Of a DNA stretch of 45,287 nucleotides, positions 5,531 through 45,112 are shown piece by piece. Numbering within the stretch: the first letter of the stretch is position 1; each line of letters opens with the position of its first letter. Under the pieces are notes generated by a model. The model saw only the letters and a program-made list of their open reading frames with translations, ran no database searches and was not told where the DNA came from. Origin of the DNA: Patescibacteria group bacterium (GTDB lineage: Bacteria; Patescibacteriota; Kazan-3B-28; UBA10110); NCBI GenBank assembly GCA_043802665.1, contig JAZDKW010000015.1, forward strand, positions 1-45,287, written 5' to 3'. The position numbers and the translations under genes are program-made.

Positions 5531-5562
5531 AACGGCTCAACGGGGCGAGCCGTTGAGCCGTT
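5531..5562. repeat. AACGGCTCAAC palindromic repeat, copy 3
   Basis: 13-bp stem AACGGCTCAACGG/CCGTTGAGCCGTT; nearly identical to 285-318. Confidence 0.9.
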
Positions 5563-11452: not shown

Positions 11453-12043
11453 ATGACCCAATGGTCACATTATTATGCTCGTAGTGTAGATGCTGATCTT
11501 TACATTCGCCAGCTATACGGTCAAAAAGAATTTTTGCAGGCGATTGTCAAAGAAGATCCCCGTAAAGTTGCAGAGATAGGGGCTGGCACGGGCATAATGA
11601 GCGTTTTTTTATCTCACCTGGGCATAGAGGTGACAACTTTAGATAATGATCCAGCGGTAATAGAGCAAGCAAAACTGACTCGTTCCCGTTTCGGGGGTAA
11701 TAATAAATTAGTGGAGGGCGACGCTTTTCAATTACCCTTCCCGGACAATAGTTTTGATGTGGTCTTTCACCAAGGACTATTGGAACACTTTTCTGACGAA
11801 CAAATTCAGGAATTAATCCGAGAACACCTGAGAGTGGCACCAGTGGTATGGGCGAGTGTGCCGAATAACCATTATCCCAATAGAGATTTAGGCAATGAAC
11901 GCTTATTGGGACCAGCGGCATGGGCAAAAATCCTACATCCTTTTACTGTGCTACAAAATCGGACTTATGCGCCTAAAATTTTCCCGAAATGGTATTTGCC
12001 TCGAGTGAATATCCAGTATATGGCCAAAATAATCCGAGGATGA
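11453..12043 (+). CDS. Class I SAM-dependent methyltransferase
   Basis: EIGAGTG motif I, GDAFQLPFPDNSFDVV, GLLEHF. Confidence 0.9.
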   Translation: MTQWSHYYARSVDADLYIRQLYGQKEFLQAIVKEDPRKVAEIGAGTGIMSVFLSHLGIEVTTLDNDPAVIEQAKLTRSRFGGNNKLVEGDAFQLPFPDNSFDVVFHQGLLEHFSDEQIQELIREHLRVAPVVWASVPNNHYPNRDLGNERLLGPAAWAKILHPFTVLQNRTYAPKIFPKWYLPRVNIQYMAKIIRG

Positions 12044-12044
12044 A

Positions 12045-12150
12045 CCCCGTTAGAAAGAAGTCAGTAAAACTGGACAATAAACTTAAATTCTGAGTAACTA
12101 AATTAATCTCACAGATTCATACCAATTTAGCACATAAATTTCTAACGGGG
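12045..12150. mobile_element. MITE-like element (106 bp), copy 1
   Basis: 12-bp TIR CCCCGTTAGAAA/TTTCTAACGGGG, flanked by TGAA at 12041-44 and 12151-54. Confidence 0.8.
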
Positions 12151-13574
12151 TGAACAATACCCAAAAAATTGCCTTGAACACCGGAGTCCAGTTGGTTGGC
12201 AAGGGTGTGACGGTAGCCACCTCTGTATTGATCATTGCTTATCTGACCCGTTACCTGGGGGTGGCTGGTTACGGTGACTATGCCACAATCTTTGCCTACT
12301 TAGGGGTATTCGGGGTAATGGTTGATTTGGGGTTGTTTGTTATCGCTGTTCGGGAGATCGCTAAAACTCCCCAACAAGAGAGAAGTATTTTAGGCAATAT
12401 ATTGGGTTTAAAGATCGCTTTGAGTGTTGCGGTTTTGGGCGGAGCATATCTTTTAACTTGGGCGCTCCCCTATACGGCAGTTGTCCGCCAAGGAATTTTG
12501 ATCGGAGCTATTTCACAATTATTCATATCACTCAACCAAGTGCCATTAGGCTCTTTCCAGGCTAATCTGACTATGTACAAAGCGGCTTTGTCGGATGTGG
12601 TGGGCAGATTGGCAATGTTGGGATTAGTCTGGTGGCTCATTTACACCCAGAGCGGTCTGTTGGGTATGATTTGGGCAGTGGCGGCGGCTAATGCCGTGGT
12701 GCTACTGCTGAATATCATTATGGTGGGGGCAAAGTACTGGTTGTTGCCTTTGTTTGAATGGCCGCGCTGGAAAAAGTTGTTCGTGGCGGCCTTACCAATG
12801 GGGGTTGTGATGGCCCTGGGAGTAATTTATTTTCGGATAGACATTTTATTATTAGCCGCTATCAAAGGGAGTTTCGCTGTTGGGATTTATAGCGCGCCAT
12901 ACAAGGCTTTAGAGGTGCTTTTGGCTGTTCCCAGTATATTTATGAGCTCTGTTTTACCAGTAATGACTATTGCGTTAGCCAAATCCACAATGGAAGCCGC
13001 CCGGATATTCCAAAAAGCTTTTAATTTTCTAAGTCTTGCAGCCCTGCCTTTAATCGCAGGGACTTTAGTGGCGGCCACACCGGTGATGTTGCTCATTGCT
13101 GGGCAAGATTTTATATTATCAGGGCCTATTTTACGCGTTCTCATTTTGGCTATTGGCGGATCGTTCTTAAATAGTGTGATGATCTATACTATCATGGCTG
13201 CTAATCAGCAGTCGCGATTGATTACACCATATGTGTTAGCAGTGGTTTTTAATGTGGCGGCCAACTTATTGTTGATTCCCCGATTTTCTTACTGGGGGGC
13301 GGCTGTTGTTACGGTGGCAACAGAATTCTGGGTGTTGGTGGCAAGTATGTATATAGTGTGGAAGTATTTGCACTTCTCGGTTGATTGGCGCGTATTCAGT
13401 AAAACTCTTTTTTGTAGTGCGGTGATGGGAGGGCTACTGTATTACCTCAGAGATTTAGCAGTTTGGTGGATTGCGCTAATCGGGGTCGGCGTTTATGGTG
13501 GGTTGGTTATGCTAACTCGGGCAGTGACCTGGGCAGAGATTTTAGAAATATTGCCCCGTTGGGCTAAAAATTAA
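12150..13574 (+). CDS. Wzx-type polysaccharide flippase
   Basis: Many TM segments; TRYLGVAGYGDY, DLGL...REIA, YFRIDILLL, VGIYSAPYK, LLIPRFSYWGAA; GTG start formed at the MITE end. Confidence 0.9.
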   Translation: MNNTQKIALNTGVQLVGKGVTVATSVLIIAYLTRYLGVAGYGDYATIFAYLGVFGVMVDLGLFVIAVREIAKTPQQERSILGNILGLKIALSVAVLGGAYLLTWALPYTAVVRQGILIGAISQLFISLNQVPLGSFQANLTMYKAALSDVVGRLAMLGLVWWLIYTQSGLLGMIWAVAAANAVVLLLNIIMVGAKYWLLPLFEWPRWKKLFVAALPMGVVMALGVIYFRIDILLLAAIKGSFAVGIYSAPYKALEVLLAVPSIFMSSVLPVMTIALAKSTMEAARIFQKAFNFLSLAALPLIAGTLVAATPVMLLIAGQDFILSGPILRVLILAIGGSFLNSVMIYTIMAANQQSRLITPYVLAVVFNVAANLLLIPRFSYWGAAVVTVATEFWVLVASMYIVWKYLHFSVDWRVFSKTLFCSAVMGGLLYYLRDLAVWWIALIGVGVYGGLVMLTRAVTWAEILEILPRWAKN

Positions 13575-37898: not shown

Positions 37899-38704
37899 TC
37901 CTGTAGGTTAAGAGTTTGGGCGCGCCGGTCAGACGCAATGCCACTGACCGTTAAAATATTTTTGATGGTATCAACATCTAAATTGAGTCCTCCGGCCAAA
38001 GAGTTGTGAATCTGCTTACGGCGCTCCCCGAAGCCGGCTTTAACGATTCTAAAGAACTTTTTCTCATCTACTGTGGCAGGCAATTTTTTATGCGGAGTAA
38101 TCCGAATGATTGCCGAGTCTACTTTAGGGATGGGCCAGAAATCTTGTTTGGGGATGATAGCAATAATTTCGGGGTGGCTATAAAATTGGACTGCCACACT
38201 TAAAATGTTAGCTTCTGGCGGGGTGGCCACGATGCGTTCAGCCACTTCTTTCTGCACCATTAATACCATCATAGCAGGGCGATATGCGCTTTCTAAGAAA
38301 AAGCGGATAATTGCTGAAGTTAAATAATAAGGGAGATTGGAGACTAATTTATATTTTCTGTCCGGAAAATATTCCTGGAAGAACAGGTTGTCTAAAGTCA
38401 GGGCGTTGCTCTCTATGATTCTGATGTTGGTTAGATCCGAATTTAGACTTCGGCAGGCCTTGGCCATAATGGGGTCTTTTTCGACGGCGATAACTCGGTT
38501 TGCGGAGAGAGCCAGTTCACGGGTAAGGGTGCCCAGCCCCGGGCCAATCTCTAAAATTTCATCCTGGTCGTTCACTTGAGCGGCTTGAATAATCTGGGTC
38601 AGTACGGAGCGGTTGATTAAAAAATGTTGCCCGAGTCTTTTTTGGGCAAACGTTTGATATTCCCGGAGAATCTGCCGAATTGTTACCAGATCAGTAAGGT
38701 CCAT
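37862..38704 (-). CDS. rsmA: 16S rRNA adenine dimethyltransferase KsgA
   Basis: KRLGQHFL, EIGPGLGTLT, SNLPYY, MVQKEVAERI, PKVDSA; ATG formed at the MITE end. Confidence 0.97.
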   Translation of the reverse strand: MDLTDLVTIRQILREYQTFAQKRLGQHFLINRSVLTQIIQAAQVNDQDEILEIGPGLGTLTRELALSANRVIAVEKDPIMAKACRSLNSDLTNIRIIESNALTLDNLFFQEYFPDRKYKLVSNLPYYLTSAIIRFFLESAYRPAMMVLMVQKEVAERIVATPPEANILSVAVQFYSHPEIIAIIPKQDFWPIPKVDSAIIRITPHKKLPATVDEKKFFRIVKAGFGERRKQIHNSLAGGLNLDVDTIKNILTVSGIASDRRAQTLNLQEWLKLYRDIIKL

Positions 38705-38821
38705 CCCGTTAGAAGCAGGGAGTCCAGGGCTCCCGACTGGTTAACAATAAGGTATCTGATAATAAATTAGTTATTGAGTGATTCATATAGTTTAGTGCTT
38801 GGAAGAGTGCTTCTAACGGGA
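38704..38821. mobile_element. MITE-like element (118 bp), copy 2
   Basis: 14-bp TIR TCCCGTTAGAAGCA/TGCTTCTAACGGGA, flanked by TCCA at 38700-03 and 38822-25. Confidence 0.8.
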
Positions 38822-38826
38822 TCCAT

Positions 38827-39531
38827 TTAAATCCGATAATATTTGATGGGGATCTTCCCGGCACCCAACGGGGCCAACTTAGCAAAAGCCGGTTTGTTGA
38901 GATCCAGCATTACATCTGTCCAAGCCTCGGGACCGTAGTCATTAATGGTAATTACAATAGCTTTTCCAGAATTAACGGCAATTACCCGCAAGCGAGTTCC
39001 CCTGGGGAATTGAGTGCTGGCGGCGTTCATGCCGGTGCCAAAACTATACCAGCTGGCTGTGCCGTGGTAGGTGGGAGATTTAGCGACGAGAGCTTCCTCG
39101 GCTTTAAGTTGGGCTTCGGCCGCCTTTTGTTTGGCTAAATCAGCCACTCTTTTAATAGTATCTTGCATATTGGTCGCCACGATAGTATTGCGCGCGGTAG
39201 GTTGAGTGGTGATAGCAACAAAACTCTGGTTGGTTAAAATTTTTGACCGGACTGGAGTCACGGAAGTTACCTGCTGGTTGCTAAGATTAAGCTCATTCAA
39301 GAGTCCCCCCACAGTCAAACTATCGGTAGTGTAGGTATCAGCCAGGCCGTTAATAGAAACAACTACTGTTTTAGTGCTGGCTTCTACCACGGTGCCTAAT
39401 TGAGATAGAATATAAACTAATAAAATCACCGACCCAATTGTTGCCGCGTTTGCCCAAGGTCTAATCTTAGGATGAAGCAGAGATTGGGGTGAAGATGAAC
39501 TTTTTGATTTATCTCTATGATTAACCAACAC
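38827..39531 (-). CDS. Cell-wall protein with DUF348-like and RlpA-like double-psi beta-barrel domains
   Basis: N-terminal TM, TVGGLL segment, GTASWY, INDYGP, LDL...AF; upstream of rsmA like yabE/rpfB. Confidence 0.8.
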   Translation of the reverse strand: MLVNHRDKSKSSSSPQSLLHPKIRPWANAATIGSVILLVYILSQLGTVVEASTKTVVVSINGLADTYTTDSLTVGGLLNELNLSNQQVTSVTPVRSKILTNQSFVAITTQPTARNTIVATNMQDTIKRVADLAKQKAAEAQLKAEEALVAKSPTYHGTASWYSFGTGMNAASTQFPRGTRLRVIAVNSGKAIVITINDYGPEAWTDVMLDLNKPAFAKLAPLGAGKIPIKYYRI

Positions 39532-44128: not shown

Positions 44129-44313
44129 GTCATTCTGGCTTGCGCTATCCCTCCGTAGCCTTGGCGAAGGACGGGTCCAGAATCGTATAATTTAAACGGC
44201 TCAATACTTGCCCGCCTTGGGAGGGGGTTGAGCCGTTCAAAACCAGGTCTGGGAATGGCCTCAGGCCCGGAGGCCTTCCAGCTCGCTTTACGAGCACCGG
44301 ACCGAAGGGAAAA
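44129..44313. repeat. Repeat cluster upstream of the orphan gene
   Basis: ATTCTGG/CCAGAAT stem with nested CCCTCCGTAGCCTTGGCGAAGGACGG; AACGGCTCAA/TTGAGCCGTT (44195-44237); AAAACCAGGTCTGGG; GGCCTCAGGCCCGGAGGCC. Confidence 0.8.
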
Positions 44314-45009: not shown

Positions 45010-45050
45010 GAACGGCTCAACGAACGGCTCAACGCGTTGAGCCGTTCGTT
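45010..45050. repeat. AACGGCTCAAC palindromic repeat, copy 5
   Basis: Perfect 32-bp palindrome 45019-45050 plus an extra tandem GAACGGCTCAAC. Confidence 0.9.
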
Positions 45051-45112
45051 TTGTCATTCCGACCGGAGTGGAGGGATCTGGTCGCTTTGAAAGCGACCCT
45101 AAGTTATTTTGC

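Follow-up and report, generated by a model that had tools for sequence, protein, structure and literature searches.

In relatives of the bacterium studied here, rsmA is joined stop-to-start to the gene upstream of it. In the 45,287-nt contig JAZDKW010000015.1 of a Patescibacteria group bacterium (assembly GCA_043802665.1; the whole contig is called the window hereafter), 118 bp with inverted-repeat ends lie between the RlpA-like gene and rsmA, and reach exactly into the rsmA start codon. What is this sequence, how could it enter such a place with the reading frame left intact, and by what means was it brought there? An earlier reading, made from the sequence alone, had seen in it the second start-codon insertion of one family in the window. 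The presence of a start-codon element at rsmA is confirmed here, and it is very probable that positions 38704-38821 are a non-autonomous copy, without an open reading frame (ORF) for an enzyme and similar to MITEs (miniature inverted-repeat transposable elements), of an inverted-repeat family of Patescibacteria, inserted and mobilized along the lines proposed below.

The rsmA junction and its empty counterparts

On the minus strand, the junction reads TAA-A-TGGA-[TCCCGTTAGAAGCA...TGCTTCTAACGGGA]-TGGA-CCTT, exactly as the sequence-only reading had laid it out. The repeat finder returned arms at 38703-38717 and 38808-38822, 15 nt long, 100% complementary and spaced by 90 nt; because the outermost of the 15 pairs is formed by the T..A palindromic ends of the TGGA duplication, the element proper is taken as 38704-38821, whose terminal inverted repeats match perfectly over 14 nt and whose duplication of 4 bp reads TGGA on the gene strand (Table 1). 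This is the sole perfect 15-mer inverted repeat in the window at spacings of 20-400 nt (100 first-order shuffles: mean 0.01, maximum 1). The outer base of the rsmA-proximal repeat and the duplication at 38700-38703 together form the present ATG GAC, and the old ATG, stranded upstream, opens a 19-codon ORF; both had been proposed before. No nuclease gene is present, and the 118 bp, in which only ORFs of 19 and 25 codons are found, are below the room needed for an enzyme of its own.

Table 1. Features of the rsmA junction and the second copy in the window (positions of the window).
Feature	Position	Strand	Basis
Element proper (118 bp, outer base to outer base)	38704..38821	- (rsmA direction)	sequence, repeat finder
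rsmA-proximal terminal inverted repeat (TCCCGTTAGAAGCA on +); outer base gives A of present rsmA ATG	38704..38717	.	
Distal terminal inverted repeat (TGCTTCTAACGGGA on +)	38808..38821	.	
Target-site duplication beside rsmA (TCCA on +, TGGA on gene strand); gives TG of ATG and GA of codon 2	38700..38703	.	
Target-site duplication beside RlpA-like stop; forms old ATG together with 38826	38822..38825	.	
19-codon ORF from stranded old ATG (38826-38824), MDPVRSTLPSTKLYESLNN*	38767..38826	-	
25-codon mini-ORF MNHSITNLLSDTLLLTSREPWTPCF*; TAA inside proximal repeat, then CGGG (4 nt) and rsmA ATG	38709..38786	-	
Internal hairpin GGGAG-7 nt-CTCCC beside rsmA-proximal repeat; stem co-varies among subfamily copies	38718..38734	.	
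rsmA/ksgA (16S rRNA dimethyladenosine transferase), ATG rebuilt by element; PF00398, 185 bits	37862..38704	-	
RlpA-like (DPBB) gene, PF03330; TAA stop precedes old ATG	38827..39531	-	
Copy 1 (106 bp), TGAA duplicated at 12041-12044 and 12151-12154	12045..12150	+	repeat finder, sequence

The anatomy predicts how the site should look without the element: the junction would be TTTAAATGGATCTC, with TTTAAATGGACC as the empty target sequence at rsmA. A 1.2-kb region was searched in 41 genomes and the junction was read in 11 loci, and the predicted empty junction is seen in relatives of other genera. In G006, which belongs to another genus of the same family, the RlpA-like/rsmA junction is TTTAAATGGATCTCACC, the predicted empty site; the junction had been named as the place to look for an empty allele, and "no empty allele anywhere" does not hold. 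The element is also absent from G009, G011 and G012, in which stop and start overlap as TGATG or TAATG, and from G008 and G007, with spacers of 7 and 16 nt, which makes six genomes of other genera with an empty junction. In the congener G002, this site is occupied by the same element, likewise oriented and flanked on each side by TGGA, and the insertion is therefore not private to this genome. Thus, an insertion with inverted repeats and a target duplication has taken place at rsmA.

In three further congeners (G003, G004 and G005), spacers of 137-180 nt are occupied by unrelated repeats rich in CCTGCC/GGCAGG, located at L003:1973-2111, L004:1997-2178 and L005:1973-2111. These spacers hold palindromic repeats of a different kind, and the RlpA-like/rsmA junction is a place at which small elements have landed repeatedly.

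The copies of G000 (the genome of the window) and G002 share 87% identity (106/122 columns), while the adjoining 600 nt of rsmA share 72% and the last 400 nt of the RlpA-like gene 60%. A tree of 25 copies taken from four congeners separates the two: that of G000 falls among its G000 paralogues and that of G002 with G002_C51. Constraining the two together costs 15.2 log-likelihood units (approximately unbiased (AU) test, p = 0.016; the test was made after the tree had been seen, and the alignment rows have 118 columns only). Judging from these sequences, a quietly inherited relic is less likely than repeated entry into a single permissive site or conversion between copies.

Could the sequence instead be a conserved cis-acting RNA structure, i.e., a leader, attenuator or processing stem of rsmA expression, and not a mobile insertion at all? 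Fold prediction closes the arms with the A and U of the rsmA AUG paired, so that the first two bases of the start codon would be sequestered, and the same-site copy of G002 is better conserved than its flanks, as given above. As DNA, the region folds better than its shuffles (z = -3.4; 0/200 as good). As RNA, it is only weakly better (z = -1.84; 8/200 fold as well), and no Rfam match was found at E up to 1 in 38500-39000. Moreover, the element is missing from the junction in the six genomes above, lies at unrelated genes in either orientation elsewhere in G000, and is flanked by duplications, all of which make a cis-acting RNA highly improbable. A common promoter or terminator role was also considered and rejected: copy 2, as the rsmA element is called below, has one weak promoter-like site on the plus strand, facing away from rsmA, and no terminator, and copy 1 has no promoter-like site.

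A family of elements on start codons

Copy 1 occupies a comparable place. With its flanks (12041-12154), it split the ATGA stop/start overlap of a methyltransferase gene and a Wzx-like gene, and the latter now begins with GTG at 12150, the outer G of the copy having replaced the A of the original ATG. Its interior and that of copy 2 (82 and 90 nt without arms) align significantly on the same strand (z = 4.9; 0/2000 shuffles reach the score) but not on opposite strands (z = 0.9; 416/2000). Because the interiors share one strand, and copy 1 has its host gene on the right but copy 2 on the left, the two stand in opposite orientations to their host genes. With the common core arms and the census below, both the kinship and the reversed orientation claimed in the sequence-only reading are borne out.

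The window is contig C15 of G000, a 626-kb, 28-contig and 95%-complete genome, whose contigs are cited below as C2, C16 and so on, followed by positions. A scan with the core arms gave 37 short pairs; after a nested case on C9 had been re-paired as two, and two further pairs had been added (the one with the nuclease on C16 and a degenerate one on C21), 40 pairs were tabulated. The arms are spaced by 66-270 nt and enclose the whole unit, and copies occur at unrelated genes, facing one way or the other. In 15 of the 40 pairs (chance is 1 in 256 per pair), the four bases just outside the outer base form a perfect direct repeat, and in 2 an inverted one. In 16 pairs, the outer base and two flank bases make an ATG or GTG that opens at least 80 codons. 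Ten of the 15 reconstructed empty sites are A/TGAA, A/TGGA or A/TGAG (the slash marks the insertion point); the other five are G/TGAA beside another element (one), G/TTGA (two), the 5′ end of a tRNA-Met gene (one) and a variant (one). In three copies, copy 1 included, the element's outer G changed an ATG start to GTG.

The family is also found outside this genome. The pattern CCCGTTAGAA-N85-115-TTCTAACGGG, which occurs 27 times in G000 and 0 times when read backwards, was scanned in public genomes. At least 125 stretches match the CCCGTTAGAA/TTCTAACGGG pattern, mostly in Patescibacteria (Saccharibacteria, Kaiserbacteria, Nomurabacteria, Kazan and others), with a few in metagenome-assembled genomes labelled Omnitrophota, Deltaproteobacteria or Scalinduaceae. 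Among the matches listed, 81 elements in 80 loci made up the sample: a perfect 4-nt duplication flanks 56 of the 81, complementary outer bases end 80, and a start codon followed by at least 19 open codons lies on exactly one side of 54 and on both sides of none. The duplicated tetranucleotides are TGAA/TTCA (23), TAAA/TTTA (7), TGGA/TCCA (6), TGAG/CTCA (6) and others. The family is thus linked as a whole to (A)TG-purine start codons with a 4-bp duplication. Terminal inverted repeats, a duplication of fixed length, many dispersed copies, presence and absence at an orthologous site, and small size, by which bacterial MITEs are recognized, are all found, and the rsmA copy is a member of the family.

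The two ends of each element vary together. When the two arms of all 40 pairs of G000 were aligned, with the outer base as position 0, the complementary stem spanned positions 0-12 (13 bp), and complementarity fell to chance level from position 13-14. The outer bases are T..A in 19 pairs (copy 2 among them), C..G in 18 (copy 1 among them), G..C in 1 and non-complementary in 2, with no T..G or C..A mixture. The variable positions 0, 10, 11 and 12 are complementary in 38, 40, 37 and 37 of the 40 pairs, respectively, and position 10 takes all four bases. Co-variation of the terminal bases, proposed earlier from two copies, is therefore general in the family: the arms are kept identical and the end stem of 13 bp is strictly complementary. 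Of the earlier proposal of independent insertion with pairing of the ends maintained, family, insertion and complementarity stand; matching arms alone do not prove base pairing, because a protein binding both ends, or fold-back copying, gives the same pattern. Pairing within a single strand, fold-back copying and a protein with one way of reading either end would each keep the arms identical, and a structural requirement is favoured because many arm variants coexist in a genome with one intact nuclease gene. On the whole, the sequence-only reading is supported, each of its testable parts having held.

Orientation is constant inside each subfamily. The internal hairpin is present in all 12 copies of the copy-2 type (those at C19:95 and C24:11726 are possibly a single locus that was assembled twice). 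Each also contains a mini-ORF of 24-31 codons that begins with ATG and faces the host start, which is directly at the element in 10 and 7 nt beyond it in 2. The three copy-1-type copies that abut a gene are oriented the other way and lack a mini-ORF. Of 54 outside elements, among the matches listed, 19 have an ORF of 15 codons or more at the end near the gene and 3 have one at the far end. An origin of the rsmA copy by internal deletion of a full-length element was considered and dropped: judged by eye, its interior is unlike that of the G009 full-length element with the same arm variant (L044) beyond the arms.

Several loci of G000 show more complex arrangements. Three contigs end in or near element copies (C19:1-208, C24:11726-11933 and C3:1-55). 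The copies on C19 and C24 have a common gene-side flank and differ on the other side (TGGA/TGGA versus TGAA/TGGA), and therefore strain variants or recombination between copies are suggested. At C2:11016-11195 and C17:1888-2060, elements adjoin the 5′ end of tRNA-Leu and tRNA-Met genes; in the tRNA-Met case, the terminal GGG of the element and the duplicated CTCG rebuild the first bases of the tRNA. At C9:940-1600, C4:6640-7100 and C17:3200-3400, same-core pairs enclose intact tRNA genes (Ala-CGC, Arg-TCT and Met) and lie within a broken copy of that tRNA, in its anticodon loop or T-loop; on C9, the nesting is three deep. An arm-enclosed tRNA-Met gene is found again in two genomes of another genus (G009:C4:123981-124092 and G011:C18:50211-50322), which means that the arrangement is old or can itself move.

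Instead of transposing, the copies could spread when existing repeats recombine or undergo gene conversion, in a homing-like copying into end-like sites that leaves the 4-nt repeats as microhomology at the joints. In favour of this, elements lie beside or within one another (C4:10730 by a partial copy; the nested pairs on C9), the C19 and C24 copies share only one flank, and the same-site copies of G000 and G002 are not nearest relatives by the AU test. Against it, apart from the start codon the reconstructed empty sites do not resemble element ends, and many different tetranucleotides are duplicated (TGAA, TGGA, TGAG, TAAA, TATG and others). As the general means of spread, such conversion is distinctly unlikely.

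The nuclease-bearing relatives and known systems

What could move such elements? At C16:3158-3429, an inverted-repeat pair of the same core surrounds an 86-aa GIY-YIG ORF (C16:3174-3431), whose TGA overlaps the ATG of a 415-codon host ORF. Full-length relatives are about 270 bp long and have an 86-aa GIY-YIG nuclease as their only coding content. The protein matches PF01541 (56 bits, residues 1-68 of 86), one of 10 such matches in G000. Its structure model (predicted local distance difference test score, pLDDT, 89) matches the GIY-YIG folds of UPF0213, HIGLE, Slx1 and the I-TevI catalytic domain, and its nearest PDB sequence is the UPF0213 protein 1zg2 (E = 8e-7); NCBIfam gave only a sub-threshold group I intron endonuclease match. 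Y5, Y16, G18, H30, T38, K66 and G70 are invariant, and R26 and E62 nearly so. Hence, the partner with the same core ends, in this genome as in its relatives, encodes a GIY-YIG nuclease and not a recognized transposase.

The association holds across genomes. Thirty loci related to the C16 nuclease were returned from 25 other genomes. With its own locus counted, and L030 and L046 taken as one, all 11 loci at least 53% identical to it are bounded by repeats, 8 of the same core and 3 of a variant core, and each ends with TGA or TAA on or beside an ATG or GTG; the long host ORF was verified for the C16 copy only. Ten of the 26 genomes, which are kin, have at least three exact-pattern elements, and a same-core repeat-bounded nuclease gene is found in 8 of these 10 (frameshifted in G001); in the 16 genomes with two or fewer elements, no repeat-bounded nuclease gene of this core type is found among the returned loci, which alone were inspected. 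The nuclease gene is the family's only coding partner.

Small GIY-YIG ORFs of a different setting also occur in G000, beside tRNA genes and without inverted repeats, at C16:897-1139, C28:12553-12873, C10:58982-59230, C28:14773-15108 and C7:3884-4249. They are 34-43% identical to the repeat-bounded nuclease, and in three cases (C16, C28:12553 and C10) a tRNA gene has duplicated pieces on either side of the ORF.

Terminal inverted repeats with a short TNNA-type duplication are typical of MITEs that depend on DDE transposases, and both are found here. The elements might then be ordinary MITEs of a classical transposase family (e.g., IS5- or IS630-like) whose DDE transposase is absent or unassembled, with the GIY-YIG gene as cargo or a secondary invader; that the nuclease-bearing full-length copies lack the duplication would fit. 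Profile searches of the 95%-complete G000, however, gave no match to DDE_Tnp_1, DDE_3 or Y1_Tnp (PF01797). In addition, all 11 of the closest nuclease loci, from several genera, are bounded by the same kind of repeat, and element number tracks nuclease presence. It is also hard to fit one sequence-reading transposase to four variable arm positions that are complementary in many combinations in one genome. A classical MITE is thus judged unlikely.

Known small elements resemble the family in part. In Neisseria, the target duplication of Correia elements (CREE/NEMIS) is TA and their repeats measure 26 bp; they are not known to be aimed at start codons, nor to have a GIY-YIG partner. Like these and similar MITEs, the present elements are about 100-150 bp long with terminal inverted repeats, exist in many gene-adjacent copies and are co-transcribed, so that their arms can pair in mRNA; unlike Correia elements, they have a TNNA-type duplication of 4 nt. 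A Y1 HUH transposase and subterminal hairpins characterize IS200/IS605 elements and their gene-less derivatives (PATEs; REP/REPIN with RAYT), which are not known to duplicate their target. The likeness to such derivatives lies in small size, dependence on hairpins, a probable action on single-stranded DNA and gene-less copies mobilized in trans, here putatively; the difference lies in the lack of PF01797 matches in G000, the GIY-YIG gene in full-length forms, the terminal inverted repeats and the target duplication. Free-standing homing endonucleases of the I-TevI type share the GIY-YIG catalytic fold and the habit of a selfish gene at a precise site in a host gene. The 86-aa protein here, however, has no DNA-binding domain, and inverted-repeat ends and gene-less derivatives with duplications are not produced by homing. 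An attC-like recombination site was dropped on anatomy, the conserved heptamers being opposite to the arrangement in attC; no integrase search was made.

Among published systems, Ssn/NTS comes closest; its NTS-ssnA-NTS modules have been described, and their insertion-sequence look is remarked on by the authors (Chenal et al., 2025; PMC11893778). In both systems, a GIY-YIG protein of one domain and about 90 residues (94 aa in Neisseria SsnA, 86 aa here) has repeats on both sides of its gene, gene-less repeat copies are scattered between genes, and repeat number tracks gene presence. Ssn nucleases (clade cd10448) cleave only single-stranded DNA, next to compact, directional SRM hairpins of 20-50 nt, whereas two 13-bp arms enclose the whole unit here; an NTS-like consensus is not seen in the present family, and the 4-bp duplications and start-codon siting are its own. 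A compact hairpin is found here only inside the copy-2 subfamily (38718-34), and the nearest solved relative of the nuclease is UPF0213, its activity being predicted. GIY-YIG proteins have also been described in non-intron insertions of rRNA genes of the candidate phyla radiation (CPR) (PMC11270868). Neither in passages of PMC12455944 and PMC11270868 nor in the full-text literature searches made were start-codon elements with inverted repeats described for Patescibacteria, or a GIY-YIG element bounded by repeats. A family whose complete members encode only a tiny nuclease is widespread in these ultra-small bacteria and has apparently remained undescribed.

Two other repeats are present. A second palindromic family (GAACGGCTCAACG and its complement) lies in the window at 285-318, 5531-5562, 44191-44241 and 45010-45059; of its 13-mer and that 13-mer's complement, the window has 6 occurrences and the genome 10. 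On C6, a 1.4-kb pair with CCGTTAG in common was rejected as an autonomous element: at C6:28190-29660, the ndk gene is flanked by a perfect 43-nt inverted repeat of another kind, and the core of one arm occurs again on C2.

A proposed route of mobilization and its consequences

At rsmA, the element inserted into a compact TAA ATG GAC junction, between the A and the TG of the start codon, with duplication of TGGA; its terminal A and the downstream TGGA re-created ATG GAC, so that the rsmA frame stayed intact and the old ATG was stranded upstream. Probably, the GIY-YIG nuclease mobilizes ORF-less copies in trans. Movement may proceed via a single-stranded fold-back with paired arms; such a fold-back would need the arms to pair, which could be why the variable arm positions are always complementary. 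By analogy with Ssn nucleases, the 13-bp stem would be the recognized structure, probably in single-stranded DNA, and joining may be left to host repair. The start-codon habit might come from a TGRR target preference combined with loss of gene-breaking insertions in a nearly spacer-free genome. The weakest step is the last: in the copy-2 subfamily, the 25-codon mini-ORF, ending 4 nt before the ATG, may relay ribosomes to rsmA.

Taken to its full extent, this proposal describes a minimal autonomous transposon of about 270 bp with an 86-residue, Ssn-like GIY-YIG nuclease as its sole protein. A 13-bp stem would hold the transposon in a single-stranded fold-back as it moves, and start codons, which it rebuilds, would be its targets. 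Its derivatives of the rsmA type would survive on essential genes by means of a ribosome-relaying short ORF, and sister derivatives would carry whole tRNA genes and overwrite the resident tRNA copy. So complete a picture is put forward tentatively, as a possibility with the odds rather against it.

Several observations weigh against the account. A perfect duplication is lacking in 25 of the 40 pairs of this genome. Nine full-length copies whose flanks were read lack the 4-bp duplication (mostly TTTA on the left and mostly TGAA or TAAA on the right), and because of this, full-length copies may spread differently from ORF-less ones. A GIY-YIG nuclease only cuts and no joining activity is encoded, and cutting of these ends is itself putative. 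G004, with 13 elements, and G024, with 3, have no repeat-bounded nuclease gene among the loci returned, and related genomes are non-independent samples. The copy-1 subfamily and, among the matches listed, 35 of 54 outside elements have no mini-ORF; therefore, translational coupling is not a general requirement. The RNA fold at rsmA is weak, as given above. Metagenome (Logan) contigs of four runs show the filled allele only and none joins across the empty site: they span both filled-allele junctions (X2 record 3 and X1 record 2), the remaining pieces are other family copies, and one RNA-run contig matches the arms only, around a different interior. No movement of the element has been observed.

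If the account is true, start codons of Patescibacteria would be a regular landing site of a mobile element, and gene callers would misplace starts, as at copy 1, where ATG became GTG, and at rsmA, with its stranded ATG upstream. In size, the family would rank with the smallest known mobile elements that are self-contained, and it would give a selfish-element context to the recently described small GIY-YIG single-strand nucleases. The nuclease and its stem are a directly testable candidate for a new site-specific DNA tool. For the organism itself, a nearly spacer-free genome would tolerate such repeats since only those insertions that restore the interrupted signal survive.

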